Below, in pieces: positions 3,294 to 36,616 of a stretch of DNA of 36,616 nt (within the stretch, counting starts at the first letter, position 1; every line of letters starts with the position of its first letter). The DNA lies in contig JBKPAK010000254.1 of the NCBI GenBank assembly GCA_046726415.1, positions 1 to 36,616 on the forward strand, written 5' to 3'. A model generated the notes under the pieces. It worked only from the letters and a program-made list of their open reading frames with translations. It did no database searches and was not told where the DNA came from. The translations under genes were made by a program, and so were the position numbers. This DNA comes from Candidatus Methylomirabilota bacterium. GTDB lineage: Bacteria > Methylomirabilota > Methylomirabilia > Rokubacteriales > CSP1-6.

Positions 3294-3301
3294 CACCCTG
3301 A

Positions 3302-3339
3302 GGCAACGTCGCCGTGGAACGCACCGCGGCGACGTTGCC
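3302..3339. terminator. 16-bp stem hairpin between convergent genes (possible bidirectional terminator)
   Basis: GGCAACGTCGCCGTGG-AACGCA-CCGCGGCGACGTTGCC; no U-tract. Confidence 0.55.
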
Positions 3340-3402
3340 ATACCGCCGAGGAAGGCGCAGAGGCCAGCTTACGGGCTGGCCCTGCCGGCATCGGTGATTA
3401 CC

Positions 3403-3777: not shown

Positions 3778-3805
3778 AGTGTCACCCCCTCTCGCGAGGT
3801 GCTGC

Positions 3806-5989: not shown

Positions 5990-6076
5990 TCGCACTCGCC
6001 ACTCTGCGCCATGAATCGCACTCGCCGCCTCGTGCCATGAATCGCACTCGCCACTTTGCGCCATGAATCGCACTCG
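5990..6076 (+). repeat. 26-bp tandem repeat, about 3.3 copies, spanning the SGNH gene start
   Basis: TCGCACTCGCC-N7-GCCATGAA at 5990, 6016 and 6042, plus partial copy at 6068. Confidence 0.9.
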
Positions 6077-16734: not shown

Positions 16735-17073
16735 CCCTTCTACAGCTACAACCGGCCGGGCGCGAAGGTCTCGGAGGGTGTGCGCGAATCCTTCTGGCTC
16801 CAGGGCATGATGGCCGGCTTCCCCGCCTCATACTTCTGCATCAAGGCCTTTTCCGAGACGGATCTCACCGAGGATCTCAAGAAGATCGACGTGCCGACGC
16901 TCATCCTGCACGGGGACGATGACCAGATCGTGCCTATCGGAGCGTCGGCCATGCGTTCGTCCAAGCTGGTCAAGAACGCGACGCTCAAGGTCTACCCGGG
17001 CGCACCGCACGGCATGTGCACGACCCACAAAGACCAGGTCAACGCCGATCTGCTGGCCTTCCTCAAGACCTGA
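16735..17073 (+). pseudogene. C-terminal fragment of a non-heme chloroperoxidase-type alpha/beta hydrolase
   Basis: [13 protein letters not shown]...[38 protein letters not shown]; the catalytic Ser region is absent. Confidence 0.85.
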
Positions 17074-17143
17074 CCCGAGCACGAACTCTCAGGCCCTGAG
17101 GGGGAGGGGGCCGCGACCCTGGGACACCCATAACGCCTCGCGC

Positions 17144-20404: not shown

Positions 20405-20461
20405 CGCCGCCCCTCCCGTGCCAAACGATGGCCGTGCGACTGCCGGCCGATGAGGTACACG

Positions 20462-20476
20462 GCAAGGGGGATGCCA
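20462..20476 (-). promoter_or_regulatory. Sigma54 (-24/-12) promoter upstream of the 1086-aa gene
   Basis: Minus strand TGGCAT-CCCCC-TTGC, 58 nt before the ATG; AT-rich IHF-like segment at about 20490-20507. Confidence 0.7.
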
Positions 20477-20796
20477 GGTGACGAGAACGTTAAATTACAT
20501 ACTTATGAGCGGCGTCGCCGCTGGCTACCAGGTGGTTGACCAGGGACCCACCACCAGATGCCGATTATCTGACTGCCGAAAAGCCCGCAGCTAACCCGGA
20601 CTTCTGCCTCTCGTCGCCAGCCCGACCTCCAGCTGTCGCCTCAACCGGCCGCGGACTGATGAACGGCGCACGCACAGCCCGCCTGGTGGTAGACGACTAT
20701 TTAATTGGGCCCAACCAACCCTGGGGAGAAACCGTGGTGACCACATTCCAAGCCGCGGACGTCGCTCAGCGCTCTCGGCATCGCCCGCGCCGACGA

Positions 20797-20860
20797 CGAC
20801 CGCGGCCTGGAACGCTCCTGCACTACTGCGACCGCGGCCTGGAACGCTCCTGCACTACTG
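20797..20860. repeat. Perfect 32-bp tandem duplication covering the ligase stop codon
   Basis: CGACCGCGGCCTGGAACGCTCCTGCACTACTG at 20797-20828 and 20829-20860. Confidence 0.95.
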
Positions 20861-22528: not shown

Positions 22529-23394
22529 GTCGTGTTCTCCTTCTCTTTGCGTCCGAGACCGTTCGTCCTTCGTCCGCCGCTGAGAAACGCCCGGACGATT
22601 GGAGCCAGCTCCTCGGCGGAGGTCACCAGGCCGAGATGCCCGTCATCGAAAATGTGGAGTCGGGAATGCGGGATGAGCCAGGCCAGGATTCTTCCGTTGA
22701 GACAGGGGACGATCGGGTCGTCCCGGCCCGTCAGGATCAACGTGGGCTGAGGCAGCCTGTGCAGCCAGTGGATGCTCGTCCAGCCGACACCGGCCAGGAG
22801 CTGCCGGTAGTATCCAGACGGATCACCCGCGCGTACTTCGCGCGCCAGTCTCGCCGCGAGCGCGGGGTTTGCGCGAAGGCGGCCACCATAGAGCCGCCCG
22901 GCGATCGCCGCCATGTAGGACGGGTCCTGATAACGCCGGGGGCTGGCCAGCGCGAGAAGTGCCGACAAGCGGCCGGGCACCATGATGGCGCCGGTCCCGG
23001 TGGAAACCAGGATCAGCCGGCGGCAGCGGTCTCGATGCTGGTGGGCGAACTGCTGAGCGAGGGCGCCGCCCCAGGACACGCCGAGGACATCGACCGTGCG
23101 GTAGCCGAGCTGATCGAGCATGCCGGCGATCAGCTGCGCGAGCCCGGGAAAGCGCACAGGGATTGGCGGCGCCGGCGACTCCCCGGCGCCCGGTAGGTCC
23201 ACCCGGATCGTCTCGATCCCCGCCCCGAGCGCATCGACGAAGGGCTGGAACAACTCGAGGTTGGCCCCGATGCCGTTGAGGAGCAGCAATGGCCGTCCAT
23301 CGCCGTCACCCCGCTGGATCACCACGCGGAGACGCTGCCCGTCGACGTCGATCGCGCTGATCCGCGCCCCTGTCGCCCGACGCGCTGACGGCAT
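22522..23394 (-). CDS. phaZ: Intracellular poly(3-hydroxyalkanoate) depolymerase, Pseudomonas PhaZ type
   Basis: LL.NGIGANLEL..PFV.AL, GVSWGGALAQQFA, MVPG, G.DDPIVP..N, DDGHL; start overlaps the phaC stop (TGATG). Confidence 0.9.
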   Translation of the reverse strand: MPSARRATGARISAIDVDGQRLRVVIQRGDGDGRPLLLLNGIGANLELFQPFVDALGAGIETIRVDLPGAGESPAPPIPVRFPGLAQLIAGMLDQLGYRTVDVLGVSWGGALAQQFAHQHRDRCRRLILVSTGTGAIMVPGRLSALLALASPRRYQDPSYMAAIAGRLYGGRLRANPALAARLAREVRAGDPSGYYRQLLAGVGWTSIHWLHRLPQPTLILTGRDDPIVPCLNGRILAWLIPHSRLHIFDDGHLGLVTSAEELAPIVRAFLSGGRRTNGLGRKEKENTTC

Positions 23395-25109
23395 CACCGC
23401 TCCGTCGAGGCGCCGAGGACGTAGGTCCCCGGGGCCTGGCGCCCGGCCGGGTGGCGCCGGCTCCCGAGCGCCTTCGGCGCCGGCCGGCGCGGGCCGGAAC
23501 GGGCGATGCTCCAGTCGCGCCAGTGGTCCCACCAGCTACCCGACTGCGCCTGGGCGCCGGCCAGCCATTCGTCAGCATTGCCCGGACAGTGAGGCCCCGT
23601 GAAGAACTTCGCTTTGGTGTTGGTGGGCGGGCTCACGATGCTCTGGACGTGGCCGCTGCCGTTGAGCACGAACTCCCGCTGGCCGCCCAGCATCTGCGTG
23701 GTGGCGTAGCACGCTTTCCAGGGGACGATGTGATCGGTGATGCCGGCCAGGATGTAGGCGTCGCAGGTGACGTTGGACAGATCGATTGGTGTTCCCAGGA
23801 TCGAGAGGGCGCCGGGATTCCTGAACGGATTCGTGGCGACCATGTCCAGGAACTCCCCGTGCAGCCGAGCGGGCAGGGACGTCGAGTCGTTGTTCCAGTA
23901 GAGGACGTCGAAGGCCGGCGGATCGTTGCCGAGCAGGTAGTTGTTGACCCAGTAGTTCCACACCAGGTCGTTCGGGCGCAGCCACGCGAAGGCCCGCCCG
24001 ATTTCGTTCGCCGGGAGCACGCCTTTGACGGATGAGTTGAGCCTGGCCAGGGCGAGGGCTTCTCGGGTGGCGAACGAGCCGACGAGAGACTCGGCCTGGG
24101 TATCGAGCAGCGCCACCAGCAGACTCACGGCATTGATGCGGCGCTCGCCCTTGGCGGCCAGGTGGGCCAGGAGCGCCATGGTGGTGATTCCGCCCGCACA
24201 GGCGCCCAGCATGTTGACGTCCGGGCTGCCCGTGATCTCAGACGCCGCGTCCATGGCCTGCAGGATGGCGGTCACATAGGTCTCGAGGCCCCACTCGCGT
24301 TGCGACGGGGTGGGATTGCGCCAGCTGATGGCGAACACCTGCACCCCGCTCTTCACGGCGTACTCGAAGAGGCTCCGGTCGGGCGCCAGATCGAACAGAT
24401 AGAACTTGTTGATCTGAGGCGGCACGACGAGGAGAGGCCGCTCGTAGACTTCCTCGCTGGCCGGCGCGTATTGGACCAGCTCCAGCACCTCGTTCTTGAA
24501 CACGACGGCCCCCGGCGAAACGGCCAGGTTCTTACCGACCTGAAAGGCCGACTTGTCGACCTGGGCCGGCATCGCGCCGTTGGTCGCGATATCGCGGAGC
24601 AGGTTGACGAGGCCGCACCCGAGGCTGGCCCCTCCGGTCTCTAACGCCTTCTTCAGCGCCGCCGGATTGCCCAGCACGAAGTTGGTGGGGGCGGCCGCCT
24701 CGGTCAGTAGCGACACTGCGAAGTGGGCCCGTGCCGTATTCGCGGCCGGCAGCCCGAGCGCGTCCACCAGAGCGTGGAGGCTCTGGCGGCACGCCAGATA
24801 GCTCTGCAGCCAGGCCCGATAGAAGGGGTTTTCACTCCATGTCGGATCCTGGAAGCGCCGGTCGCCCGGATCGGGCGCGCGCGTCGATCGGCCGGCGAGC
24901 ACGCCGATCAACTCGCGCACCAGCGCGGCCTGCTGTTCCAGCACGACCCCCGGCTGCTTCACGGCGTGCTCGCCGATTCCCTGGATGACTCGGAAGACAT
25001 CCGGGCCGGTGAGGCCCACGAAGGGGTTGGGGCCGAGAAGGGCGCCCACCACACCTTCGGCGAAGCTCTCGGGCTTGACTCCCTGCTCGGCGCTCTCAAC
25101 GGGCGGCAT
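23394..25109 (-). CDS. phaC: Poly(3-hydroxyalkanoate) synthase, class II-like
   Basis: LGPNP..G N-terminus, DRRF.DP.W..NP.Y, PPQINKFY..DL.P, GAC.GG box, W.RPNDL.WNYWVNNYL.G, DHI.PW, SGH.QSI..PP, GSWW.HW. Confidence 0.93.
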   Translation of the reverse strand: MPPVESAEQGVKPESFAEGVVGALLGPNPFVGLTGPDVFRVIQGIGEHAVKQPGVVLEQQAALVRELIGVLAGRSTRAPDPGDRRFQDPTWSENPFYRAWLQSYLACRQSLHALVDALGLPAANTARAHFAVSLLTEAAAPTNFVLGNPAALKKALETGGASLGCGLVNLLRDIATNGAMPAQVDKSAFQVGKNLAVSPGAVVFKNEVLELVQYAPASEEVYERPLLVVPPQINKFYLFDLAPDRSLFEYAVKSGVQVFAISWRNPTPSQREWGLETYVTAILQAMDAASEITGSPDVNMLGACAGGITTMALLAHLAAKGERRINAVSLLVALLDTQAESLVGSFATREALALARLNSSVKGVLPANEIGRAFAWLRPNDLVWNYWVNNYLLGNDPPAFDVLYWNNDSTSLPARLHGEFLDMVATNPFRNPGALSILGTPIDLSNVTCDAYILAGITDHIVPWKACYATTQMLGGQREFVLNGSGHVQSIVSPPTNTKAKFFTGPHCPGNADEWLAGAQAQSGSWWDHWRDWSIARSGPRRPAPKALGSRRHPAGRQAPGTYVLGASTER

Positions 25110-25590
25110 GGTTCTCCTCCGCTCTGCCGGCGACCAGCATCGCGAGAGCTTCCGCGACCATGGCCGGCTTGTCCTCGCCTTCGATCTCGATCGTGTGCTG
25201 CGCCTTGACCAGCACGCGTCCCGGGCCCTTGTCCTCTACCGCCAGGAGGGTGACGCGGTCGCGGATGCGCGCGCCCGCCTTCACCGGGGTCATGAAGCGC
25301 ACGCGGTCCAGGCCGTAGTTGAATGCCTGATCCGCATCGGCAGGGACGAGGCCGACCTCGTAGGTGAAGCGCGCGAGCAGGGCCAAGGTCAGGTAGCCGT
25401 GAGCCACCGTGGAGCCGAACACGCTCTCCCGACCCGCGCGCTCGACGTCGACGTGAATCCATTGATGATCGTCCGTGCAGTCCGCGAATTGATCGATGCG
25501 CTTCTGGTCGATGGCCACCCACTCGGTAACCCCGAGCGAGCGCCCGACGAACTGCGGGAGCGTTCGCAGCCAGTAGCCTTCAAGCGCCAT
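25096..25590 (-). CDS. MaoC/NodN-family dehydratase, probable (R)-specific enoyl-CoA hydratase (PhaJ-like)
   Basis: Q.RI..FA..T.DHQWIH.D.ERA (Asp-x4-His dyad), T.AHGYLTL, NYGLD.VRF..PV; directly upstream of and overlapping phaC. Confidence 0.88.
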   Translation of the reverse strand: MALEGYWLRTLPQFVGRSLGVTEWVAIDQKRIDQFADCTDDHQWIHVDVERAGRESVFGSTVAHGYLTLALLARFTYEVGLVPADADQAFNYGLDRVRFMTPVKAGARIRDRVTLLAVEDKGPGRVLVKAQHTIEIEGEDKPAMVAEALAMLVAGRAEENHAAR

Positions 25591-27514
25591 GATCTGCTCT
25601 CGGGATGGGGTGGGCATCGCCCCCGGCGAGGCGGCGGCTGGCCAGCAGCGAGCGGGGCTGGAACGCGTCGGGCCCGCGGCCGAGCTCGACCGTACCCTCG
25701 TCCAACAGACCGCGGTCGCCCGCCATCACCGTGGCGGCGAGGCGGTTCTTGCGCGCGTCGTCGTTGTCCCAGAGCTCGGCGAAGAGTCTCTGCACCTTGC
25801 GCCGGGCGTTTCGGCAGAACAGGTCCGCCAGCTCCCCCGCCCGCTCGGCGTCCGGATGGCCCTCGGCGAGCAGGGCGCGCGCATGGCTGATCGAGGCCGC
25901 CATCGCAAAGAGCTCCATCGCGATGTCGACGCAGCGGAAGAGGAACCCTTGCTTGCGCTCCATCGCCGCCCGGTAGGCCGCGATCCCGTGGAAGCTCTCG
26001 CGCGCGAGCTTGCGGCACCGGCGCTCGATGAAGCGCACGTGGGTGGCCAGCCGGCCGAAGTCGCCATAGCGGAGCGGCGTGGCCAATCCGGCGAGCCAGA
26101 GCGGCGGGTACCAGGCCGCGTAGAACCGCGCGATCCGGGGCAAGGCGGCCAGGCGCGCACCCGCGCCCTTTCTCGGGTCGGCCATAGCGCCGGCGATCTG
26201 CAGATGCGCGTCCACCGCCTCCCGGGCCATGAACAGATGCATGATCTCGCTCGAGCCCTCGAAGATCAGATTGATCCGGCAGTCGCGCAGCATCCGCTCG
26301 ACGCCGATGGGCGCTTCGCCCCGTCCGCGCAGCGAGCTCTCCGTTTCGTAGCCCCGCCCACCGCGAATCTGCAGGGTGCGGTCCACCAGCTCCCACGCCC
26401 GCACGGTGTTCCACTCCTTGGCCGCCGCCGCCTCCAGCCGGATGTCGTAGCCGCCCCGGTCCGCCATCTGACTGACCAGCCGCCACACCGAGTCCATGGC
26501 GAAGGCCGTGGCCGCGAGGTCGGCGATCTGATGCGAGATCGCTTCGTGCTTCCAGATCGGCACGCCCCATTGCTGGCGAACGGCGGTCCACCCGCGGCAG
26601 ATCTGAAGACAATGCTTGGCCAGCCCGGCCGCCCCCGCCGGCAAGGTCAGCCGGCCCGTGTTCAGGGTGGTCAGCGCGATCTTCAGGCCCTTGCCTTCCT
26701 CGGCGATCAGGTTCTCGCGCGGCACTCGAACCTGACGGAAGCCGATCACGGCGTTGCCCAGGGCCCGGAGCCCCATGAAGCGCGAGCGGTACTCGACGCT
26801 GACGCCGGGCCAGGCGGTCTCCACGACGAAGGCGCTGATCTTCTTCGTCTTGGGATCGCGCGCCATCACCACCAGCAGCTCGGCCAGGGTGCCGTTGGTG
26901 CACCAGAGCTTCTCGCCATCGAGCACCCACGCCTCTCCGTCCCACGTCGCCGTTGTGGTCAGGCTCGCCGGATCGGAACCCACGTGCGGCTCGGTGAGGG
27001 CGAAGGCCGAGATGGCGCCGGCCGCGCAGCGCGGCAGGTACTTCTTCTTCTGGGCCGGCGTGCCGAAGAGCTTGAGCGGCTGGGGCACGCCGATGGATTG
27101 ATGGGCCGACAACAGGGCCAGCACGTTGCTGTCGTAGCTCCCGATCATCTCCATCACCGCGCAGTACTCCGCCACCGTGAGCCCGAGGCCGCCGTACTCC
27201 TCGGGGATCTTCATCCCGAAGGCGCCGAGCTTGCGGAGACCGTCGATGACGTGCGGTGGGTACTCGCCCGTCTCGTCGATGGCGGCGGGATCGACGTGGT
27301 CGACGAGGAACCGCCTCAGCTCGCCGGCGAACTTCTGAAACGCTGGCCGTTCCTCCCTGGGGCGCGGGAAGGGGTGAATGAGATCGAGCTGAAGCTTGCC
27401 GAGAAAGAGGTCGCGCAGGAACCCCTTCCCCTCCCATTCGGCCTGGCGCGCCTGCTCGGCAACCTCACGGGACTCCGCCTCGGTGCTGACGTAGGTCTCA
27501 GTGGTCGTCGTCAT
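25580..27514 (-). CDS. Acyl-CoA dehydrogenase (long, VLCAD-like form)
   Basis: ATG 27514 after GAGG; AHQSIG, AFALTEP.VGSD, G.KLW.TNG, R.QWG..I, Q..GG.GY, RD.RI..IFEG..EI; C-terminal extension. Confidence 0.93.
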   Translation of the reverse strand: MTTTTETYVSTEAESREVAEQARQAEWEGKGFLRDLFLGKLQLDLIHPFPRPREERPAFQKFAGELRRFLVDHVDPAAIDETGEYPPHVIDGLRKLGAFGMKIPEEYGGLGLTVAEYCAVMEMIGSYDSNVLALLSAHQSIGVPQPLKLFGTPAQKKKYLPRCAAGAISAFALTEPHVGSDPASLTTTATWDGEAWVLDGEKLWCTNGTLAELLVVMARDPKTKKISAFVVETAWPGVSVEYRSRFMGLRALGNAVIGFRQVRVPRENLIAEEGKGLKIALTTLNTGRLTLPAGAAGLAKHCLQICRGWTAVRQQWGVPIWKHEAISHQIADLAATAFAMDSVWRLVSQMADRGGYDIRLEAAAAKEWNTVRAWELVDRTLQIRGGRGYETESSLRGRGEAPIGVERMLRDCRINLIFEGSSEIMHLFMAREAVDAHLQIAGAMADPRKGAGARLAALPRIARFYAAWYPPLWLAGLATPLRYGDFGRLATHVRFIERRCRKLARESFHGIAAYRAAMERKQGFLFRCVDIAMELFAMAASISHARALLAEGHPDAERAGELADLFCRNARRKVQRLFAELWDNDDARKNRLAATVMAGDRGLLDEGTVELGRGPDAFQPRSLLASRRLAGGDAHPIPRADHGA

Positions 27515-27545
27515 GATCGCCTCGATCTCCTCGATCGTTGCGTTG

Positions 27546-27561
27546 TGCACCGCACGTGCCA
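27546..27561 (-). promoter_or_regulatory. Sigma54 promoter of the acyl-CoA dehydrogenase-pha operon
   Basis: Minus strand TGGCACGTGCGGTGCA (GG-N10-GC), 32 nt before the ATG. Confidence 0.7.
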
Positions 27562-27633
27562 GCCCTCGCGATGAAGGAAAACCAAGCAAAAGCCGCCCGG
27601 CCCTCATCCGTCCGGCCTCGAGGATCGGGCGGC

Positions 27634-27677
27634 GACACCCGCGCTTCGGGTGTCACCACCCGACGGTCAGACGGGTG
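27634..27677. promoter_or_regulatory. Candidate upstream activator sequences (alternating CACCCG/CGGGTG half-sites)
   Basis: GACACCCG-N5-CGGGTGTC (27634-27654), CACCCG (27657-27662), CGGGTG (27672-27677). Confidence 0.45.
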
Positions 27678-27782
27678 CGCTTGTTTCGGACGCGAGTTAC
27701 GACGGACAATCCAGGTGAGGCGGACATCGCCCCGCCGGATGCAGTCCGGCACGGAACTGGCAGGCACCAGCCAGGAGGCGCG

Positions 27783-29177
27783 ATGAGGCATCGGATCCTG
27801 ATCGTCGACGACGACGCGGTCTTCGTGCGGCCGCTGCAGCGGACGCTCGAGTCCGAGGGCTACGAAGTGCGCGCGGTGACCAGCGGGGAGACCGCGCTGG
27901 AACGGCTTCGCCACGAGGATTTCGACCTCGTCATCACCGACAAGCGGCTACCCAAGATGGACGGCATCGAGGTCGTCCGGCAGATCAAGGGCGGTCATCC
28001 GGACATCGCGGTGGTCGTGATGACGGCCCACGCCACGGTCGAATCTGCGGTCGAGGCGCTCCGCCTGGGCGCCGTCGACTATCTCCTCAAGCCCTTCGAT
28101 CTGGCCGAGGCCGTCCTGGTCATCCGCCACGCCATGGAGCTGCAGGAGCTGCGCCTGGCCAAGGGCGCGCGCGTGCGGCGGAACCAGGAGCAGTTCAGCT
28201 TCGACCGGATCGTGGCCCAGAGCCAGAGCATGCGAGAGGTCTTTGAGCTCGCCCAGTCCGTCGTCGACCTCGACACCACCGTGCTGATCGACGGGGAGAC
28301 CGGCGTCGGCAAGGAGCTCCTGGCACGGGCCATCCACTTCTCGGGTAGTCGCCGCGACAAGCCGTTCCTGGCGGTGAACTGTGCGGCGGTGCCCGCCGAG
28401 CTCTTCGAGTCCGAGCTGTTCGGGTTCAGGAAAGGCGCCTTCACCGGCGCCACCGAGTCGCGGCGGGGCGTCTTCCAGCACGCCAATGGGGGCACCTTGC
28501 TCCTGGACGAGATCGGCGAGATGCCGCTGCACCTGCAGTCAAAGCTCTTGCGGGTCATCGAGGAGCGTCGCGTGATGCCGCTGGGGGCGGGCCAGCCCGT
28601 CGAGATCGACGTGCGAATCCTGGCCAGCACCAATCGAACCCTGCGGGTCGAGGTGGAGTTGGGGCGTTTCCGCGCCGACCTCTATTATCGGCTCGCCGTC
28701 ATGCCCATCCGCGTGCCGCCCTTGCGCGAACGGCCCGGCGATATCCCCCTGCTCGCCCAGCACTGTCTGGAATCGAGCGCGCGGCGCTGTAAGAAGCCCG
28801 TGCGCGCGATCGCGCCTGCCGCCATGCAGGCCCTGTGTCGCTACGCCTGGCCCGGCAACGTGCGGGAGCTGGAGAACGTCATCGAGCGCGCGGTCATCGT
28901 GGCCAAGGGGGACACGCTCATCGACGTCGACCGGTTCCTCTCCGGAAGCGCCGAACGCTCCCGCGTGGACGTCTCGCTCCAGTTCCACGAGGCCAAGGCG
29001 CGGGTAGTCGAGGAATTCGAGCGCGCCTACGTCGCCGGCGTGCTCGAAGCGCACGGCGACAAAGTGGGGCTGGCCGCGAAGCACGCCGGCCTGGACCCCA
29101 AGAACCTTTCCGCCAAGGCAGCGCGCTACGGATTGCGCAAGGGCACGGGGCACCGGAGCCCTGAGGCGGTTCGCTAG
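27783..29177 (+). CDS. Sigma54-dependent response regulator (NtrC/AtoC family: REC-AAA+-HTH)
   Basis: ATG 27783 after AGGAGG; ILIVDDD/D/K receiver residues; GETGVGKE; intact GAFTGA; LDEIGE; WPGNVREL.N. Confidence 0.95.
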   Translation: MRHRILIVDDDAVFVRPLQRTLESEGYEVRAVTSGETALERLRHEDFDLVITDKRLPKMDGIEVVRQIKGGHPDIAVVVMTAHATVESAVEALRLGAVDYLLKPFDLAEAVLVIRHAMELQELRLAKGARVRRNQEQFSFDRIVAQSQSMREVFELAQSVVDLDTTVLIDGETGVGKELLARAIHFSGSRRDKPFLAVNCAAVPAELFESELFGFRKGAFTGATESRRGVFQHANGGTLLLDEIGEMPLHLQSKLLRVIEERRVMPLGAGQPVEIDVRILASTNRTLRVEVELGRFRADLYYRLAVMPIRVPPLRERPGDIPLLAQHCLESSARRCKKPVRAIAPAAMQALCRYAWPGNVRELENVIERAVIVAKGDTLIDVDRFLSGSAERSRVDVSLQFHEAKARVVEEFERAYVAGVLEAHGDKVGLAAKHAGLDPKNLSAKAARYGLRKGTGHRSPEAVR

Positions 29178-30703
29178 CGCCCACCGCCCGCGGCGGGAAT
29201 CACCAGGCGGACCGACGTGCCCCGTCCGGGTGTGGAATCGATCTCGATCTGGCCGCCATGCAGATCCATGATCTTCTTCACGATCACCAAACCCAGGCCG
29301 GTGCCGGTGGCTTTGGTGGTGAAGAACGGCTGGAAGATCATCCCGCGCGCCGCCCCGCTGATCCCCTCGCCGGTGTCCGTGACCTCCACGACCGCGTGCC
29401 CTTCGCGGGGGTAGAGCGCCACCTCGACTCGCGCGTCGGGCAGCTGCTCGGTGGCCTCGAGGGCGTTCCGGATTACGTTGGTGAACGCGCGCCGCAGACG
29501 CTGCCCGTCCACGGTGACGCCGACGTCGCTGTCCAGCCCGCGCGTGACCAGCGCCACGCCTCGCTCCCGGGCCTTCTCGGCGTACGCCTCCACCGCGGGA
29601 CCGACGATCTCCCCGAGGCGGTACTCCTGGCGATCGAGGGGCATCCCCCGGGCATAGTCCACGAGATCGGTCACGATGGACTCGATCTCGGTCACCCCCG
29701 ACAGGATGGAGGCCGTCATCTCCTCGGTGATCCCGCTGTGGCCGTGGGACCGCGAGGGCAGGAATTGGGCCGCCATCTTGATGGCCCCGAGCGGGTTCCG
29801 GAGCTCGTGGGCCACCACGGCCGCCATCTCCCCGAGGGATGCAAGCTTGTCGCGTTCCATCAGCCGCTGCTGGGTGGCGACCAGCTCGGTCAGATCCCGG
29901 AGAGCGCCGACCGTTCCCAGCATCCCGCCGTCGGTCTCGAAGATGCACGACAGCGCCAGGTGCGCCGGGAAGCCTTCACCGTCGCGCGTGATCGCGGTGA
30001 CGCTGCCCCGCCAGGATCGCCCGGCCGCCACCGCCCCTTGGATCTCCGGCCCGACCCGGCGGCGATCGCCCTCGTCGAGGACATCCAGGTAATTCATCGG
30101 ATGAGCGGGCGCCTCGTAGCCCAGCCGCCGCCGCCCGGCTTGGTTCAGGGTCACGATCCGGCCATCGGGGTCACTGGTGAAGATGCAGTCCTCGGTGCTC
30201 TCGACCACCGAGGCCAGCAAGCGCTCGGCTCGGCCGAGCGAGCGCTGAAGCGCTTCCTGCGCCTGCCTGACGGCGCTGCGGTCCTCGGCGATCCAGATCG
30301 TCCCTTCGCCCGGGTCGCCGAGGTTCAGCACGTACCCGATGAGATTGACCCAGATGTCGGAGCCGTCCCAGCGACGCATGTAGAGCTCGGTCTGGAACGG
30401 CTTGCCCTGCGACAGCAGCGGTGCGGCCAGGCGGCCCAGGGCGTCGTATTCCTCATCGGACCGGTAGAGCACCCGGGCCGGCAAGCCGATGATGTCGTGG
30501 CCGACGTAGCCGTACATGTCGGCGAACTTCGGGTTGTAGCGGGTGATGCGGCGGTCGCGCGTGAAGACCATGCCGACGGAGGCGTTGCGCATGATCGCCT
30601 CCATCTCGCGCACGGTCTCGCGCAGTGACCGTTCGGCACGGCGGGACCGTCGGGTCCTTCGGGCCGCGTCGCCCACCGACTTCTTCGACGGCCGCCCAGC
30701 CAT
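29174..30703 (-). CDS. Soluble PAS-PAS sensor histidine kinase; start uncertain
   Basis: Two PAS/PAC-like units; LASLGEMAA.VAHELRNPL H-box; N, D.G.G, F.PFFTTK and GTGLGL boxes; no TM; stop overlaps the regulator stop (CTAG 29174-29177). Confidence 0.92.
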   Translation of the reverse strand: MAGRPSKKSVGDAARRTRRSRRAERSLRETVREMEAIMRNASVGMVFTRDRRITRYNPKFADMYGYVGHDIIGLPARVLYRSDEEYDALGRLAAPLLSQGKPFQTELYMRRWDGSDIWVNLIGYVLNLGDPGEGTIWIAEDRSAVRQAQEALQRSLGRAERLLASVVESTEDCIFTSDPDGRIVTLNQAGRRRLGYEAPAHPMNYLDVLDEGDRRRVGPEIQGAVAAGRSWRGSVTAITRDGEGFPAHLALSCIFETDGGMLGTVGALRDLTELVATQQRLMERDKLASLGEMAAVVAHELRNPLGAIKMAAQFLPSRSHGHSGITEEMTASILSGVTEIESIVTDLVDYARGMPLDRQEYRLGEIVGPAVEAYAEKARERGVALVTRGLDSDVGVTVDGQRLRRAFTNVIRNALEATEQLPDARVEVALYPREGHAVVEVTDTGEGISGAARGMIFQPFFTTKATGTGLGLVIVKKIMDLHGGQIEIDSTPGRGTSVRLVIPAAGGGR

Positions 30704-30911
30704 GGTCGCCGTCGAGCGTATGGCCACCCGCGTTTGGTTGTCAAAGCGCCGGCCGACGCTCGAGCGCCGCCGCCCATTGTCACCCCGACGATCGCGTGGA
30801 TAGAATGGCCCGACCCCCGAACGCCGCGCCGTCATAGTGAAGCTGGTGCGTGCCTGCTGATTGGTTTCGCGGTGGAGCCTCAGGACATCACGCAGCATAG
30901 TGTAGTAGTTT

Positions 30912-31242
30912 ATGAACATCGACTACCGCCTCTTCTGGCTGTGGCCCGCGCGGCTCTGGACGAGCTGGCGGTCGAGCCTCGTCATTGTCCAGCCTGCGAC
31001 AGTTCTCGCGTGGCACCGCTAAGGCTTCCAGTTCTCCTGGCGTTGGCAGTCCAGGCCGAACGCGGTCGGCCGCCCGCGCCTCGCCTCGGAGCTTCGCCAC
31101 CTGAGCCGCCAGATGGCTCGCGACAATCCAAGGTGGGGCCGCCGGCACATCCAGGCGGAACTCGCCCTCCTCGGCTACCACGTCGCCGCATTGACCATCG
31201 CCAAGATTACATGCAGCGGCCGTCGCCCACGTGGCGCGCCTT
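30912..31242 (+). mobile_element. Degenerate transposase fragment (HTH region of an integrase-core/DDE type IS)
   Basis: RLFW.W..RLW..W.SSL.IVQP.TV..WHR*GF...W...SR...GRP...MARDNPRWG...IQ.EL..LG; in-frame TAA at 31020-31022, frameshift before YM...PSPTWRA, truncated before the DDE core. Confidence 0.8.
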
Positions 31243-31362
31243 ATACTCAGTCCGGTCCGAGTAGCGCAGGAGAGAGTAACCCTCTGAGCACACCGGTGCA
31301 GAAAATATGGGGGTCAGCGACTGAGCAGAAACAGCATGGAATTACAGGCAAAAGTTTGCCGA

Positions 31363-31409
31363 GGCTCATAACCCAAAGGTCGCTGTTTCAAATCCAGCCC
31401 CCGCAACCA
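31363..31409 (+). other. 3' half of an initiator tRNA-fMet(CAT) gene; att-site remnant, not an intact tRNA
   Basis: GGCTCATAACCCAAAGGTCGCTGTTTCAAATCCAGCCCCCGCAACCA: CAT anticodon loop, T-arm with one mismatch, CCA end; no 5' acceptor or D-arm upstream. Confidence 0.88.
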
Positions 31410-31418
31410 TTGACGACG

Positions 31419-31458
31419 AGGGGTTAGCGGACGCAGCATCCGCTAGCCCCTTTCGTTT
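31419..31458 (+). terminator. Intrinsic terminator-like hairpin after the tRNA fragment
   Basis: AGGGGTTAGCGGA-CGCAGCA-TCCGCTAGCCCCT followed by TTCGTTT. Confidence 0.7.
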
Positions 31459-31478
31459 ACCCAGACTTCACCCAGGAA
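31459..31478 (+). repeat. 20-bp direct repeat, copy 1 (arm-type site candidate)
   Basis: ACCCAGACTTCACCCAGGAA; ACCCAG units 11 bp apart. Confidence 0.85.
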
Positions 31479-31615
31479 GCGGCCGAAGCGAACGTGATCA
31501 GCGACGAGCCGCCGGCGATCGCGGTCACGATGCCACTGGCGATCCCGGCCCGAACATCAGCGCCACAGCCGCCCCGTCCATGAGCCCCCAGCCTACCGGC
31601 TTGCCCGCGGGTGTT

Positions 31616-32863
31616 CTACGCCGGCCGCCGGCCCACGGTCTGACGGGCCGAGGGCCGCCCTGGCCCGAGCACAACCAGGGCGGCCGCGACCGCCTGAAGC
31701 GCCGCGCACGCGCCGAGGGCGGTCCCGTAGCCTCCGCTCCAGTCGCGCACGACGCCGACCAGCGATGGCCCGAAGGCGAACGTGAACTGATTGATGCCGA
31801 CCACGAGCCCGACGAGGGCCGCGAATCCCTCGCGCGGCCACTCGACGGCCAGGATCAGTCCCGGCAGCGTCGTCAAGTTGCCGACGCCTAGCCCGAACAG
31901 CGCGCAGCCGGCATAGGCGATCGCCGGCGACGGCGCCGACGCCAGCAGTCCCACACCGACGATCTGGACGGCGAGCGTCGCGCACGAGACCAGCCGGCGA
32001 TCGAGCCGGTCGACCACGACGCCCACTGCCAGCCGACCGAGCAGCGCGGCGGCGGTTGTCGCGCTCACAGCGCGCGCCCCTCCACCCGGCCCGAGCGTGG
32101 GGGAGACGAGCGCCACGAGGTGCGTGAGCACCCCGACCTGCGCTGCGAGGCCCAGCGCGAACGGCGCCGACACGCTCCAGAACCGCCACGTCCGCACCGC
32201 CGCGGCGCGCCAGCCTTTCGGGAGGCTCGCCGGCGGCGTGGCCGGTTGTGATCTCATCGGATCGCCGTCGGGGCCGAGCCCGAGATCTTCGGGACCGCGG
32301 CGCATCACGCCGATCGCGACCGGGACGAGCACGATCACTAGGGCGAGCGCGGCGGCACCGAGCGCGGGCGTGAAGCTTGTCAACCCGATGAGCACGATCA
32401 GCCCCGGCGCGACGATCACGCCGCCGAGCGTCGCGCCGTTGAACGCCAGGCTGACGGCGAGGCCGCGACGCCGCTGAAACCACGGCGCGAGCACGATGTT
32501 GATCGCGGCACCGCTCATCGCGCCCCAGCCCACCGACATCACCAGAAATGCGGGATAGAGCTGCCATGGCCTGCCCACGACACCGAGCAGTGCGACACCG
32601 ATCGCCATCGCGACGGTGCCGACCGTCACGACGAGGCGCGGCCCGAGCCGCGCGTAGAGGTCGCCGGCGACGGTGCTCAGCAGCGCGCCGGCGACGTAGT
32701 ACACCGTGACCGGCGCCGAGACGGTAGACGCGGACCACCCGTGCAGGCGCTGCAGCGCCGCGACGTAGACGCTGAGGCCGTAGAAGCCCAGGCCGAAGCT
32801 AAGCAGCGCCATCACGAACGTCGCGCCCACGACGTTCCATCCGTAGAAATATCGCGCGCCCAT
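31616..32863 (-). CDS. MFS transporter
   Basis: YGW.VV N-terminus, about 12 hydrophobic segments, WF.RRRGLA.SLA..G, G...DR..RR. Confidence 0.9.
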   Translation of the reverse strand: MGARYFYGWNVVGATFVMALLSFGLGFYGLSVYVAALQRLHGWSASTVSAPVTVYYVAGALLSTVAGDLYARLGPRLVVTVGTVAMAIGVALLGVVGRPWQLYPAFLVMSVGWGAMSGAAINIVLAPWFQRRRGLAVSLAFNGATLGGVIVAPGLIVLIGLTSFTPALGAAALALVIVLVPVAIGVMRRGPEDLGLGPDGDPMRSQPATPPASLPKGWRAAAVRTWRFWSVSAPFALGLAAQVGVLTHLVALVSPTLGPGGGARAVSATTAAALLGRLAVGVVVDRLDRRLVSCATLAVQIVGVGLLASAPSPAIAYAGCALFGLGVGNLTTLPGLILAVEWPREGFAALVGLVVGINQFTFAFGPSLVGVVRDWSGGYGTALGACAALQAVAAALVVLGPGRPSARQTVGRRPA

Positions 32864-32972
32864 CCGCGACGTCGACGCTACGCGAGGCGCCCACGCGCGT
32901 CTCGCCGTTTTCGGACCTCATCGTCCGGGCGCCCGAGCGTTCGAGCGCGCGCGTGCTACGCTCGGCGTTGCC

Positions 32973-33563
32973 ATGAGCACGAGCCTCGCACTCGACCGAG
33001 CCCGCTGCGACCGCGCCCGGCGCGCAAGAGATCCGAAGTTCGACGGCCGATTCTTCACCGGCGTCCTGACGACGCGGATCTATTGTCGGCCGACCTGCCC
33101 GGTGAAGCCCGCCAAGTCCCGCAACGTCGTGTTCTTCGCGACGGCGGCCGCCGCCGAGCGGGCGGGGTTCCGTCCCTGCCTGCGCTGTCGCCCCGAAGCG
33201 GCGCCGGGAACGCCAGCCTGGCGCGGCGCCGCGGCGACGGTGACGCGCGCGTTCAGGCTGATCGAGGGCGGCTTTCTCGACGACGGCAAGCGCGTGGGAG
33301 ATCTGGCCGAGACACTCGGCATGACGAGCCGACATCTGAGCCGCCTCTTTGCCGAGCACGCGGGCGCGTCACCGTCGGCGGTCGCGGCGACCCGTCGCGT
33401 ACAGCGCGCGAAGCGGCTGGTCGACGAGTCGGCGCTGCCGATGGCGGCGATCGCCTTCGCGGCCGGCTTTCGCAGCATCCGCCGCTTCAACGCGGCGTTT
33501 CGCGCCGTGTACCGACGGCCGCCGAGCGCGCTCCGCGGCGCGAAGCGGTCCGCGCGCCCGTAG
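32973..33563 (+). CDS. AdaA-like methylphosphotriester repair/AraC-type regulator (Ada Zn domain plus HTH)
   Basis: RD..FDG.FF.GV.TT.IYCRP.C, GFRPC.RC.P; AraC HTH (S.RHL.RLF, AFAAGF.S.RRFN..F). Confidence 0.9.
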   Translation: MSTSLALDRARCDRARRARDPKFDGRFFTGVLTTRIYCRPTCPVKPAKSRNVVFFATAAAAERAGFRPCLRCRPEAAPGTPAWRGAAATVTRAFRLIEGGFLDDGKRVGDLAETLGMTSRHLSRLFAEHAGASPSAVAATRRVQRAKRLVDESALPMAAIAFAAGFRSIRRFNAAFRAVYRRPPSALRGAKRSARP

Positions 33564-33745
33564 CGTCCTCGCGCTCGCGCTGGCGGGACAGCGTGAACGC
33601 GAAGGGCCCGGCCGTTAATTCCCTTGCAGTAGGGCCGGCCAGGTACGTCAGCTGGCGAGGGTGCGCGACGAAGCGCGTTCGAGCCAATTTGCGCGGCGGC
33701 ATCACCGGCAGTAGATTGTCGTCGTGATCACGATGGTGACCCGTC

Positions 33746-34399
33746 GTGTCAGCACACCGGCGGACACCCCGGGACGAACGACGCCGCCGTCTCGGTCAGA
33801 ACTTCCTTCGTCCTGAGTTCGCTGATCGCCTGGTCGCCGAGGCCGACTTCCGGCCGGGTGAGCTGGTCGTGGAGATCGGCGCAGGACTCGGAGCGATCAC
33901 GATCGCGCTCGCCCACCGAGGGATCGACGTAGTGGCGGTCGAGGTTGATCCGATCTGTGTTCAGCGGCTCCGCGCCAGCATCCGTTGGGTGGGACATGTG
34001 CGGGTCGTGGAGGCTGATTTCCTAACATTCGCCCTGCCGACGCGACCGTTTCGGGTGATCGGGTCTCTTCCTTTCGGAGCGACGACGGAGATCCTGCGCC
34101 GCCTCCTCGACGACCCGAGGGTACCGCTCAAGCGGGCCCACGTCATCGTCCAGTGGGAAGTGGCCTGTAAGCGGGCAGCCGTACCCCCATCCACGCTGCT
34201 CTCGACCGTCTGGGCGCCGTGGTGGGAGTTCCAGCTCGGCCGCAGGATTCCAGCGGCGCAGTTCCGACCAGTCCCACAGGTCGATGCTGGCGTGCTGGTC
34301 GTGACCCGTCGGGGCCGCCCGATACTGCCGCCGGATATGGCCACCCCGTGGGCCGCCTTTGTACGATCGCATTGGCCCTTCGATCGAGCATCAGTTTGA
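33746..34399 (+). CDS. rRNA adenine-N6 methyltransferase, Erm/KsgA family, Erm-like short form
   Basis: RRRLGQNFL, VVEIGAG.G.IT, AVE.D, .DFL, V.GSLPF, Q.EVA.KR, F.P.P.VDAGVL; 217 aa. Confidence 0.85.
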   Translation: MSAHRRTPRDERRRRLGQNFLRPEFADRLVAEADFRPGELVVEIGAGLGAITIALAHRGIDVVAVEVDPICVQRLRASIRWVGHVRVVEADFLTFALPTRPFRVIGSLPFGATTEILRRLLDDPRVPLKRAHVIVQWEVACKRAAVPPSTLLSTVWAPWWEFQLGRRIPAAQFRPVPQVDAGVLVVTRRGRPILPPDMATPWAAFVRSHWPFDRASV

Positions 34400-34548
34400 T
34401 GACGAGCCTCACGCTGCCGCCGAACAACCCGCCGGCGCGGGTCCCGGTCTCGGTCAGCCGGCGACCGCGCGCGAGGACACCTCATCAGGCCCGCGGTGTT
34501 GACGAGAGATCTCGGCTAACTTTCTGAAGGACTTATACTTCCCTCGCC

Positions 34549-35610
34549 GTGGCCGAAGCCGCTCTCGCGAAATTCTCTGCTGACTTTCTCACCGAGCGCC
34601 TGCGTGCGAGTGGAGTGCTCCCGCGCGGGCGTGTGATCGCCGTCGACGCCGTCGAGCGTCGCTCCACGCTCGTTTCCACGATTGCGCCACTCCGGGTGGA
34701 ATACTCATCCGATGCGCCGGAAGAGACGCCCACACGCCTGTTCCTGAAAGCCACGCGAGGCGGCCTCGATCCCGGTTTGCAGTCAGTCGGCGAACGTGAG
34801 GTGGCCTTCTATCGGCACGCCGCGCCGCTGATGCCCGGCGGCCCAATTCCTCGCTGTTACGACGCGGAGTTCATCGACGGAAACTTCCATCTCCTGCTGG
34901 ACGATCTCTCGCAGACCCACACTACGATCACCCCCTGGCCGCTCCCGCCGAGCGACGAGGCGTGCGAGCGCATCATCGACACGTGGGCGAGCTTTCACGC
35001 GTTCTGGTGGCTTCACCCGAGCCTCGGCCGTGACGTGGGCACATTTCTCGACGAGGCCGCGCTGGCAAAGATCACGGCCGAGTATCGCGAGCGTTACGCG
35101 CGCTTTGCCAGAACGCTCGATGACCGACTGTGGCCGGCGGCCCGAGCGATCTACGCGCGTGTGCACGATGCGCGCGAGCGGCTGATCACTCCCGTGCGTC
35201 TCTATGCGACTTACACGATCGGCCACGGTGATGCGCACGTGTGGAACTTACTCTATCCGCGCGACGGTGTTACCGCCGCTGGCATTCTTCTGATCGACTG
35301 GGACAACTGGCGGATCGGACGTGCCGCCGCAGATCTCGCGTACATGATGGCGGTGCACTGGTATCCCGAGCGGCGCGCGCGGCTTGAAGCTCGACTCCTG
35401 GAGCGTTACCACGCCGGCCTCTGCACTCACGGCGTGACCGACTACAGTCTCGAGCGCCTGTGGGAGGATTACCGGCTGTCGGTTATCGGTCACCTGGCGA
35501 TCCCGATTTGGCAGCAGACGCTCGGGCTACCTCCCGCGATCTGGTGGTCCCATCTTCACCGCATCATCGCCGCTTTCGAGGATCTGGACTGCGCCACGTT
35601 TCTCGCGTGA
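34549..35610 (+). CDS. APH/ecdysteroid-kinase-like phosphotransferase
   Basis: LFLK, REV.FY, P.CY, LLLDDL, HGDAH.WN (Brenner motif), LIDW, DLAY. Confidence 0.88.
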   Translation: MAEAALAKFSADFLTERLRASGVLPRGRVIAVDAVERRSTLVSTIAPLRVEYSSDAPEETPTRLFLKATRGGLDPGLQSVGEREVAFYRHAAPLMPGGPIPRCYDAEFIDGNFHLLLDDLSQTHTTITPWPLPPSDEACERIIDTWASFHAFWWLHPSLGRDVGTFLDEAALAKITAEYRERYARFARTLDDRLWPAARAIYARVHDARERLITPVRLYATYTIGHGDAHVWNLLYPRDGVTAAGILLIDWDNWRIGRAAADLAYMMAVHWYPERRARLEARLLERYHAGLCTHGVTDYSLERLWEDYRLSVIGHLAIPIWQQTLGLPPAIWWSHLHRIIAAFEDLDCATFLA

Positions 35611-35661
35611 CACCTTTACCGTGGCCGCGCCAGCCAGGAGTTTGGAAGCCGTCGCCGTGAC

Positions 35662-35691
35662 ACCCAGACTTCACCCAGGAATTACCCAGGA
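35662..35691 (+). repeat. 20-bp direct repeat, copy 2, plus a third ACCCAG unit (arm-type site candidate)
   Basis: ACCCAGACTTCACCCAGGAATTACCCAGGA; units at 35662, 35673 and 35684. Confidence 0.85.
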
Positions 35692-35787
35692 AGTTGCGAG
35701 CCAAAGAGCCCCAAAGCTTCCTGCGGGAAAAGCGCTAATTTACGAGGCGTTGTTTGTGGCGCGTTGGCTCCAGTCCTGGTTTGGAAA

Positions 35788-35816
35788 GGGCTCATAACCC
35801 ACTGTACCGGGGTTCG
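35788..35816 (+). other. Second tRNA(CAT) anticodon-arm remnant (att core candidate)
   Basis: GGGCTCATAACCC followed by a diverged tRNA-like ...CCGGGGTTCG. Confidence 0.65.
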
Positions 35817-35868
35817 CAGCGGACGACAGCTAGCATGCAAAATTAAGCGGTTGCGATGCACGTCGCAC

Positions 35869-35902
35869 GGCTCATCGGGTTTTCAACCCAAAGGTCGGCG
35901 GT
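35869..35902 (+). other. Third tRNA-fMet remnant split by a 9-bp insertion
   Basis: GGCTCAT-[CGGGTTTTC]-AACCCAAAGGTCGGCGGT versus GGCTCAT-AACCCAAAGGTCG at 31363. Confidence 0.6.
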
Positions 35903-36079
35903 GAGACTCGCCCGCCACTGCCGAACGAAGCGCTCCACCTGGGAGTCGTCGGTGTAGCGGTGCACCTGGCGCGAACGAGCGCGTCGACTCCGCTCTCGGG
36001 GCAGATTCACAAGCGACAAGTGGGCCCGTGCTGACGCGCTCGGTCTTCCCAGGGCCCGGATGGCGGAGAACCGGTGGTG

Positions 36080-36442
36080 TCACGCCAGGAACTCAGTACA
36101 GCCGAGGTCGTCGATCGCGAGCATCACTCGCTCCAGGCCAGGCCACCAGATCCACGCACCGAGCTTGTGGGCGGCCTGCCACACAGGTGTAGCCATCTGC
36201 CAGAGCACCGAGAGACGATAGTCCTGCCATAACGCGTCGAAGGTGTAGCCACGCACGCCGTGAGTCACCAGCGTGGCGTGATAGCGCTCTAGGGATTGCC
36301 GCTCAAGCCGGCATCGGCGCTCCGGGGACCAGTACAACGCGATCATGTAGGCGAGATCATCGGTGGCCACGTCCACCCGCCAGCCGTCCCAGTCGATGAG
36401 TCGCACGTCCGCGTTGCCGGTATCGCGGGGGAACAAAACAAT
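36080..36442 (-). pseudogene. C-terminal fragment of a second phosphotransferase, paralog of 34549-35610
   Basis: LFPRD...RLIDWD.WR...A..DLAYM.A..W.PERR.RLE...LERYH...GV..Y....LW.DYRLSV aligns with the upstream gene; similarity ends just short of the HGDAH motif. Confidence 0.8.
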
Positions 36443-36616
36443 CGACTCGGTCCGGCTTCCGACTCGGACGCAACTGTCCGAGGTGGCGCAAGACGCGGGG
36501 CTGAGTCTGATCCGACACCGGACAGTGAGCTATCCGGTGGCGCCGAACCTTAGCACCTATGCCGAACACGTGGCGACGCGAACCTTCTCAACGCTGCAGC
36601 TTGTCTCCGACGAGGA

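Follow-up and report, generated by a model that had tools for sequence, protein, structure and literature searches.

An integrase-free 4.4-kb cargo unit with ends resembling the halves of a tRNA-fMet attachment site in a Candidatus Methylomirabilota bacterium

Introduction

Integron cassettes are small recombinase-free units, each with one attC site, which lie beside a fixed attI site and on all of which IntI acts in trans. In the pdif modules of Acinetobacter plasmids, recombinase-free cargo lies between 28-bp XerC/D sites in alternating orientation, and the recombinase is supplied by the host. The present work concerns a unit of four genes at positions 31363-35800 of a 36,616-bp contig from a Candidatus Methylomirabilota bacterium (JBKPAK010000254.1; this entire contig is referred to below as the window), which carries no integrase and whose two ends resemble the halves of one attachment site derived from the initiator tRNA gene (tRNA-fMet).

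Among elements that use tRNA genes as targets, the closest described systems are genomic islands, decayed conjugative elements and tycheposons. In the passages of the Islander paper drawn on here (PMC4383910), the phage-type attachment site (attP) measures about 250 bp and contains a fragment of the tRNA gene, the anticodon loop is a common crossover site, an integrase is required for each island, and only four tandems of three or more are counted among 3919 islands. The cis-mobilizable elements (CIMEs) of streptococcal accretions are presented, in the sections of the source considered (PMC5704250), as decayed integrative and conjugative or integrative and mobilizable elements that owe their mobilisation in cis to a functional neighbour sharing their att sites. 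The tycheposons of Prochlorococcus are defined, in the consulted portion of the preprint (10.1101/2020.12.28.424599), by a tyrosine recombinase of their own, often together with a replication module.

The locus described here resembles each of these systems in part. As far as those passages describe the islands, the traits that are shared, or proposed to be so, are the tRNA target, the anticodon-loop crossover, an attP with a tRNA 3' fragment that regenerates the gene, displaced fragments oriented as the gene, and newer elements pushing older ones outward; the counterpart of the attP is an intact module of ~265 bp on another contig of the same genome (C345) together with seven other full copies, and that of the island end is the tRNA-fMet 3' fragment at 31363-31409. 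Unlike the islands, the units are 2-7 kb long and have no integrase of their own, no intact tRNA gene stands at the other end of the window unit, and in a 164-kb stretch with 22 site remnants one related genome (G061) has no integrase genes other than broken ones. With the CIMEs, as portrayed in the sections considered, the unit shares the lack of integration and transfer genes and the tandem placement at the 3' end of a target gene, and its cores and arms may be retained att sites; it differs from them in that no functional partner was found in flanks of up to 8 kb, the hosts are soil metagenome-assembled genomes (MAGs) with relatives labelled Rokubacteria/Methylomirabilota and not Firmicutes, and the units look like a recurrent cassette format instead of single decay products. 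The islands that harbour tycheposons, in the portion of the preprint consulted, are similarly anchored at tRNA genes, with successive integrations, scattered partial tRNAs, fragmented integrases and plug-in cargo cassettes, whereas units of the window type have neither recombinase nor replication module. Finally, arrays of recombinase-free cargo units with one site each, beside a fixed entry point, recall integron cassettes. The site, however, is a double-stranded attP-type sequence of 265 bp with arm repeats and a tRNA fragment in place of a folded attC hairpin, an intI-type gene with an adjacent attI was not found, the window contains no integrase, and the cargo lies on both strands and includes a regulator. 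Unlike those of pdif modules, the sites are tRNA-derived, directly repeated and chromosomal.

Our preferred reading, to which we assign a probability of roughly 0.55, is that the segment 31363-35800 belongs to a decayed tandem array as a cargo unit without integrase, that its ends are halves of one tRNA-fMet attP-type site, and that its movement would need an integrase acting in trans.

Materials and Methods

The window is contig C254 of a draft genome (G000; 7.6 Mb in 352 contigs, ~67% G+C). Contig numbers without a genome prefix belong to this source genome, G-numbers denote the genomes of relatives and L-numbers extracted loci; the related public records are mostly soil MAGs labelled Rokubacteria or Methylomirabilota. 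The synteny of the cargo was tallied over 60 genomes of relatives; the unpublished genomes G011 and G025 are included, and a G011 locus was among the sequences compared, but no individual claim depends on either. Integrases were sought by tblastn with 4 and then 11 queries (the 11 include two overlapping frames of one locus), and with a tyrosine-recombinase hidden Markov model (HMM) of our own, built from 27 domain sequences and run on six frames of all loci; around module instances, flanks of up to 8 kb were covered. The exact scan of metagenome contigs with a 31-mer of the P arm (defined below) yields a count that is a lower bound. Five soil sequencing runs contained at least half of the sampled words; the comparison was made on the contigs of four of them, and contigs drop rare forms.

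Results

The two ends of the unit

The 12-mer GGCTCATAACCC has exactly two matches in the window, both on the + strand, at 31363-31374 (the left core, in which the anticodon loop CTCATAA stands between GG and CCC) and at 35789-35800 (the right core), 4426 bp apart from start to start; shuffled sequences give an expectation of 0.08, and in none of 100 shuffles were there two or more matches. Just inside each core lies an exact copy of the 20-mer ACCCAGACTTCACCCAGGAA, at 31459-31478 and at 35662-35681 (shuffle expectation 0.00). The left copy constitutes the P' arm (31459-31478, + strand), with two ACCCAG units at 11-bp spacing; it is the right edge of the module described below, and likeness to other copies stops there. 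At the other end a third 20-nt unit follows with an 11-bp shift (35673-35692, 80% identical; repeat family D9), and the P arm (35662-35692, + strand), the left edge of the module, has three units with the same spacing. An earlier note on this DNA, made from the sequence alone, had described a 12-bp anticodon-arm repeat bracketing four cargo genes and an identical 20-mer of 11-bp-spaced ACCCAG units inside each end; both pairs proved to be exact, and both exceed by far what shuffles produce.

Beyond the left core the window reads as the 3' half of tRNA-fMet (31375-31409, + strand), with variable loop, T arm, acceptor 3' strand and CCA, and one mismatch in the T stem. The 47 nt at 31363-31409 correspond to the last 47 nt of an intact initiator tRNA-Met gene on contig C164 (complement 2716-2792) with 89.4% identity, and are 97.8% identical over 45 nt to a fragment on C77; ARAGORN found no tRNA gene in the window itself. 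A terminator-like hairpin comes next (31412-31457, + strand; 5+14 bp, -30.5 kcal/mol, z = -6.2 against 200 shuffles), which is kept in all modules aligned and is not listed by a simple terminator scan. The continuation of the left copy into a tRNA 3' half and a terminator, which had likewise been noted, agrees with both the tRNA match and the stability of the hairpin. An Rfam search of 31200-36100 was empty up to E = 1.

At the right end, the P arm and the core are separated by a spacer (35693-35788, + strand) with the conserved blocks GTTGC..GAGCCAAAGAG, GCGCTAATTTACGA and TTTGTGGCGCGTTGGC. Both cores and both sets of arms are present at the cassette ends, but no tRNA 5' half stands before the left core, and a variant tail comes after the right one. 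In the soil-run contigs many different sequences abut the module edges, before 35661 and after 31478.

In the whole 7.6-Mb genome the 12-mer occurs four times (twice in the window, in the intact tRNA-fMet on C164 and on C345) and the 20-mer three times (twice in the window and on C345). This 20-mer is tied to tRNA-fMet fragments and is not a dispersed repeat unlinked to them, the outcome that the earlier note had named as fatal to its proposal.

A conserved module of ~265 bp

Contig C345 carries (as the reverse complement of 509-753) the right end of the window unit fused to its left end, that is, an intact arm-core-arm site with 90.5% identity to the window over 116 nt and 78.9% over 142 nt, the latter covering the P-arm spacer. 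The order of a full site is three ACCCAG repeats, a spacer of ~95 nt, the core GG-CTCATAA-CCC, the tRNA 3' half, the hairpin and two ACCCAG repeats. Eight distinct full copies (that of C345 and seven outside the genome, in at least four records) align over ~265 nt with nearly invariant blocks, and in all eight the likeness drops abruptly beyond the ACCCAG repeats on both sides. The identity of full modules from different genomes to that of C345 is 83-91%. In the same genome, C32 has a degenerate full copy and a separate copy of the P arm only, C131 a copy of the P' side only, and C77 the tRNA 3' half behind a different arm. The P-arm 31-mer is found exactly in at least 123 metagenome contigs, from soil, and 32 full modules are present among the matches listed. 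The arm-core-arm attP which the earlier note predicted from the two ends is therefore a real conserved sequence, found in relatives as well as in the source genome. Ten pattern matches in viral contigs included no module, and word searches of the open-access literature turned up neither this module nor arrays of the kind in Rokubacteria.

Breakpoints at the anticodon-loop core

Twenty-three distinct units running from core to P' were compared by what precedes them: seven follow an intact tRNA 5' half with its promoter, seven follow an ACCCAG-type P arm, and nine follow other DNA. These nine diverge within 2 nt of the 5' edge of CTCATAA, and some of the preceding sequences are arms of other element types. 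The breakpoints of 241 distinct matches pile up at the module edges, the core and the tRNA 3' end (peaks at positions 35-44, 165-179, 210-219 and 280-299 of the junction query), the rest being scattered. The T stem exists in two fully paired variants, GTCGG/CCGAC and GCTGG/CCAGC, related by double changes, which one would expect were the transported 3' half to restore a working tRNA from time to time. Related elements that do bear an integrase, beside tRNA-fMet, follow the same plan with other repeats on both arms; such a repeat, CTCCCATTTTGC, is found in G019:C60, G014:C64 and C77, and the integrase-bearing element of G029:C14 has a full 410-aa enzyme (2617-3849).

Arrays downstream of tRNA-fMet

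In the 6.2-Mb genome G061, all 22 module matches fall within 2,065,032-2,229,511 of one 3.28-Mb contig and lie on the strand of the intact tRNA-fMet at 2,229,435-511, forming a 164-kb array directly downstream of this gene. A frameshifted tyrosine integrase stands directly after the tRNA gene and an N-terminal integrase fragment near the far end of the array (C2:2117371-2117583); the annotated 130 kb (C2:2,115,001-2,245,000) contain no further recombinase and otherwise hold diverse cargo, three rve_3 copies of an insertion sequence (IS) and many gene fragments. The module copies within G061 differ from each other about as much as copies from different genomes. The spacing of cores, or unit size, is 4.4 kb in the window, ~4.1 kb in G007:C59 and 6.1-6.8 kb in G061, and in other records the repeats are 1.9-5.5 kb apart. 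The unit of G007:C59 is a twin of that in the window, in that a P' arm, a single gene for a GAF histidine kinase, the P-proximal motif and a core follow each other, with no integrase. The suggestion that the window unit is one of a tandem array agrees with the existence of such arrays, whereas the neighbours of the unit itself are not cassette-like: an IS remnant and unique DNA lie on one side and the variant tail and gene fragments on the other.

The cargo of the G061 array includes an erythromycin-esterase/PCMT fusion, an EryCIII-like glycosyltransferase, extra class-I tRNA-synthetase genes or fragments, SnoaL, DinB and GNAT; its resistance or detoxification flavour is an impression, given without statistics.

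Cargo genes of the window unit

The first of the four genes (31616-32863, - strand) encodes a major facilitator superfamily (MFS) transporter (Pfam MFS_1, E = 2.8e-22) and the second (32973-33563, + strand) a regulator with an Ada zinc-binding domain and an AraC-type helix-turn-helix (Ada_Zn_binding, E = 7.4e-28; HTH_18). They are followed, also on the + strand, by an Erm/KsgA-like rRNA adenine methyltransferase (33746-34399; Pfam RrnaAD, model positions 3-209 of 263) and a kinase of the APH/EcKL family (34549-35610; Pfam APH, E = 1.5e-13, and EcKL). The C-terminus of the methyltransferase is short against the family models, and its score against NCBIfam Erm23S_rRNA_broad is 187.6 bits (cut-off 212), over model positions 1-192 of 244. 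Domain searches with Pfam and NCBIfam found no recombinase in the four open reading frames (ORFs), and our HMM had no match in the six frames of C254:29979-36616, in line with the earlier claim that no recombinase gene lies between the ends.

The four genes form a syntenic block in none of the 60 relatives; the absence of this block, together with its flanks, from repeat-free relatives leaves the cassette interpretation unrefuted. Nothing of the window cargo is shared with G061. Among the genes beside 73 module instances (58 loci), no family is common to more than four loci. Cassettes were observed at ~2-7 kb, and their cargo is often defence-like (Erm-like, APH, aminoglycoside nucleotidyltransferase (ANT), GNAT, MFS, erythromycin-esterase-like, Ada/methylguanine methyltransferase).

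Flanks of the unit

The unit sits in a decayed patch. On its left lies a frameshifted N-terminal remnant of an rve_3-type IS transposase (30909-31240, + strand), with the helix-turn-helix part kept and the DDE domain gone; it matches multi-copy IS sequences of the genome at 73-80%, and the full IS on C164 has HTH_32 and rve_3. The DNA from there to the left core (31241-31362) is unique, without a match in the genome or any extracted locus except one of 26 nt (31217-31242), which takes in its first bases, to an IS copy on C27; it could represent a secondary target, or else the P arm of a different kind of element. For an empty site within the genus, G001 and G002 offered only paralogous matches of 64-74%, with window 17000-30920.

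On the right, the core runs into the variant tail (35801-35898, + strand), a degenerate tRNA 3' half that starts with ACTGTACC, has a degenerate T arm and then a second hairpin resembling an anticodon arm (GGCTCAT, 9 nt, then AACCCAAAGGTCG). The same P arm, core and variant tail occur in six other records (G061, L037, L043, L113, L130 and L209). Further on lie the 3' remnant of a gene (35906-36006, - strand; 78-80% identical to C133:16579-16684 and C179:5143-5234, which hold full copies), which, judged by eye from its peptide, may be a class-V aminotransferase, then the 3' fragment of an APH-like gene (36080-36436, - strand), a paralogue of the cassette kinase with 71% identity to window 35290-35514, and a gene fragment (36363-36616) whose open frame runs off the contig end and whose later part looks by eye like a methyltransferase C-terminus.

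Other observations on modules and repeats

The intact module of C345 adjoins the 3' end of an O6-methylguanine methyltransferase gene (C345:1-455; L001); an 87-aa ORF of this contig is Ada-like by eye and matches no Pfam or NCBIfam family, and the window cassette also has an Ada-type regulator. On C32 (20426-24681; L023 6427-10674) a second pair of module remnants surrounds genes for an AadA-like nucleotidyltransferase, an M20 peptidase and a GNAT acetyltransferase; here too, as in the window, an APH fragment immediately precedes the P arm.

In four copies (G000:C131:5540-5587, and G061 C2 near 2,155,063, 2,135,899 and 2,124,521) the module as far as the T loop gives way to a conserved sequence of ~45 nt (..CCAGTAGGT.TCCGG.GCCGTGTAGYATT.TG), which in every case adjoins a minus-strand gene at its 5' end. 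This sequence may serve as an arm in elements whose crossover takes place in the T loop and not in the anticodon loop. The 31-36 nt upstream of the core (GTGGCGCGTTGGCTCCAGTC..GATTTGAAAAG) are kept between element types with different distal arms (G033, G046); either a protein site next to the core or a degenerate tRNA half could lie here. In length the segment roughly equals the 5' part of a tRNA, to which it bears a weak resemblance by eye, but a pseudo-tRNA is doubtful, as ARAGORN reported none and the D and anticodon stems could not be drawn. Rejected was the identification of the module with the Bradyrhizobiaceae small RNA BjrC68: the tRNA 3' half and hairpin of C345 (L001:528-615, - strand) reach 18.4 bits (E = 0.027), below the gathering score of 39, and the literature gave no lead.

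Elsewhere in the window, six diverged 70-nt copies at 3858-4737 (family D1; ~126-132 nt spacing, with one gap of 294 nt) probably belong to a gene for a repeat-domain protein, three 26-nt tandem units lie at 5990-6088 (family D2), and a 32-nt sequence is perfectly duplicated in tandem at 20797-20860 (family D15).

Discussion

The recurrence of one conserved site along strings of genes nearly free of integrases suggests gene cassettes moved by an enzyme encoded elsewhere. In the mechanism that we propose, a heterobivalent tyrosine integrase would bind the 11-bp-spaced ACCCAG units with its arm-binding domain, and strand exchange would take place across the 7-nt anticodon loop. A circular cassette with one full site would integrate at the tRNA gene or at any resident core, so that older units would be pushed outward, and recombination between the two cores of the window would release a circle of 4426 bp with a complete site. 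The integrase would have to act in trans, because the units carry none.

Several observations weigh against this reading. Neither tblastn nor our HMM detected an intact integrase within the flanks of up to 8 kb around module instances; the role given to the ACCCAG units is read from their position and spacing. The only tRNA-fMet-adjacent integrase of the genome, on C164, is cut by an IS and has lost its first ~100 residues, and its P' arm lacks the ACCCAG repeats; the enzyme with the same arm repeats that the earlier note had anticipated beside the intact tRNA-fMet is accordingly not found there. No excision of the cassette, whether as a circle or as an empty site, was observed in the contigs of the four soil runs. 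The left flank of the unit is neither a tRNA 5' half nor a recognised P arm, and the right core is followed by a conserved tail, so that the ends are no textbook attL/attR pair. Many module copies end at seemingly random points, as in decay. Parts of the cargo, moreover, occur with no module within 1.5 kb, namely the MFS and AraC genes as a pair in four relatives (75-78% identity) and the APH kinase alone in two (77-81%).

The search for an enzyme and for movement yielded further details. No intact integrase or transfer genes adjoin modules in the extracted loci (up to 8 kb, a more distant partner being possible), and none of the 29 PF00589 matches of the source genome is on a contig with a module. 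Integrase fragments do occur near modules, in L209, L201, L185 and L075 and as the frameshifted gene of G061. Against the XerA/integron-integrase model the C164 enzyme scores 28.6 bits (cut-off 220). A genome-wide scan for ACCCRG-N5-ACCCRG returned the modules and eight unrelated matches. The source genome also has integrases beside genes for tRNA-Thr, Ser/Arg, Asp, Arg and Val. On C114 (35300-35850) a decayed tyrosine-integrase gene is spread over two frames that a stop separates, and behind it come GGCGCCCAG repeats and the 5' part of a different tRNA gene; with its 10-mer beside the integrase, this locus was considered in the search for the cognate enzyme and discarded, since the 10-mer belongs to that other tRNA fragment. 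In the soil-run contigs, joints that go back from the right end to the left (35769>31363, 35770>31369, 35783>31370 and 35697>31373, with sides of 37-40 nt) were considered as traces of the cassette circle and rejected, as the letters between the sides, where listed, match other modules (for example the C32-type P-proximal sequence), pointing to paralogous full modules. A single joint that skips 4972 has a side of 20 nt.

The strongest rival, which we regard as unlikely though far from negligible, holds that the unit is an inert relic, in which half-sites of two different dead islands, each formerly with its own integrase, were brought to a distance of 4.4 kb by deletion or IS activity, so that the segment never moved as a unit and cannot move now. 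The IS remnant at the left end, the gene fragments in the right flank, the T-stem mismatch in the tRNA half, the many modules cut at scattered points and the integrase fragments inside arrays (G061 C2:2117371-2117583, L185, L201, L209) all fit such a history, and the tycheposon preprint (10.1101/2020.12.28.424599), in the portion consulted, takes fragmented integrases and partial tRNAs as traces of old integrations. Dozens of units would, however, each have had to lose the integrase and yet keep both arms highly conserved; the two 20-mers of the window unit are identical, as are its two cores, and the divergence among the G061 copies, as large as that between genomes, fits separate acquisitions better than decay in place. 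The decayed patch around the window unit, together with the T-stem mismatch, nevertheless means that this particular unit may no longer be active, also under our preferred reading of an integrase-less cassette.

Very improbable, in our view, is that the ~265-bp module is a self-copying dispersed repeat (a miniature inverted-repeat transposable element (MITE), a repetitive extragenic palindrome or a tRNA-derived repeat) and the cassette merely the DNA between partial copies. High copy number, sharp edges and the lack of a nearby recombinase would suit it, and module bins are 5-200 times deeper than cargo bins in the soil-run contigs, although the depth of the left bin is inflated by the tRNA-fMet genes of other organisms. 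The terminal repeats are nonetheless direct, whereas those of a MITE are inverted, no target duplication is seen in the eight full copies, half-copies break at the anticodon-loop core, and the 22 copies of G061 are clustered in 164 kb of 6.2 Mb and co-oriented with the adjacent tRNA-fMet.

We give equally little credence to the idea that the terminator and the 20-mer are the native 3' flank of tRNA-fMet, for instance a regulator site, copied into the window by segmental duplication. Direct repeats spaced by 11 bp are typical of sites for OmpR/PhoB-type regulators, and the hairpin and the 20-mer directly follow an intact, promoter-bearing tRNA-fMet in G019 (two loci) and G008, as does the hairpin, cut by the contig end, in G010. 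Against this, modules that stand among unrelated genes, at a distance from the tRNA gene, have the same repeats on the P-arm side as well, ~105-125 nt before the core, and the intact tRNA-fMet genes of G000, G014, G029, G033, G052 and G061 are followed by other sequences. Least probable of all is a chimeric contig joined through repeated modules, for which a 352-contig draft and multi-copy modules would give occasion, since soil-run contigs cross both junctions (one of 546 nt identical over 35746-36291 and one of 61 nt covering 31351-31411 with one difference, from a run that may be the source sample and is then not independent) and six other records share the architecture of the right end.

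Beyond the window unit, one may tentatively imagine, as a rather doubtful generalization, an integron-like platform in soil Rokubacteria-like bacteria, in which the anticodon loop of the initiator tRNA gene would be the capture site for small integrase-less cassettes, each with one 265-bp attP derived from tRNA-fMet, stacked into arrays of more than 100 kb and shuffled by a single integrase that is encoded elsewhere and reads ACCCAG. If the units are mobile, they would represent a second, independently evolved route to cassette arrays, on which an arm-plus-core attP and a tRNA gene would take the roles of attC and attI, in a lineage of abundant uncultured soil bacteria whose cargo includes resistance-gene-like genes. 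The module 31-mer, given its presence in soil metagenomes, would be usable as a probe for this flexible gene pool, and island finders that demand an integrase per island would miss such arrays. Even if the units are relics, the 164-kb string of 22 site remnants at one tRNA gene is an unusually complete record of integration.

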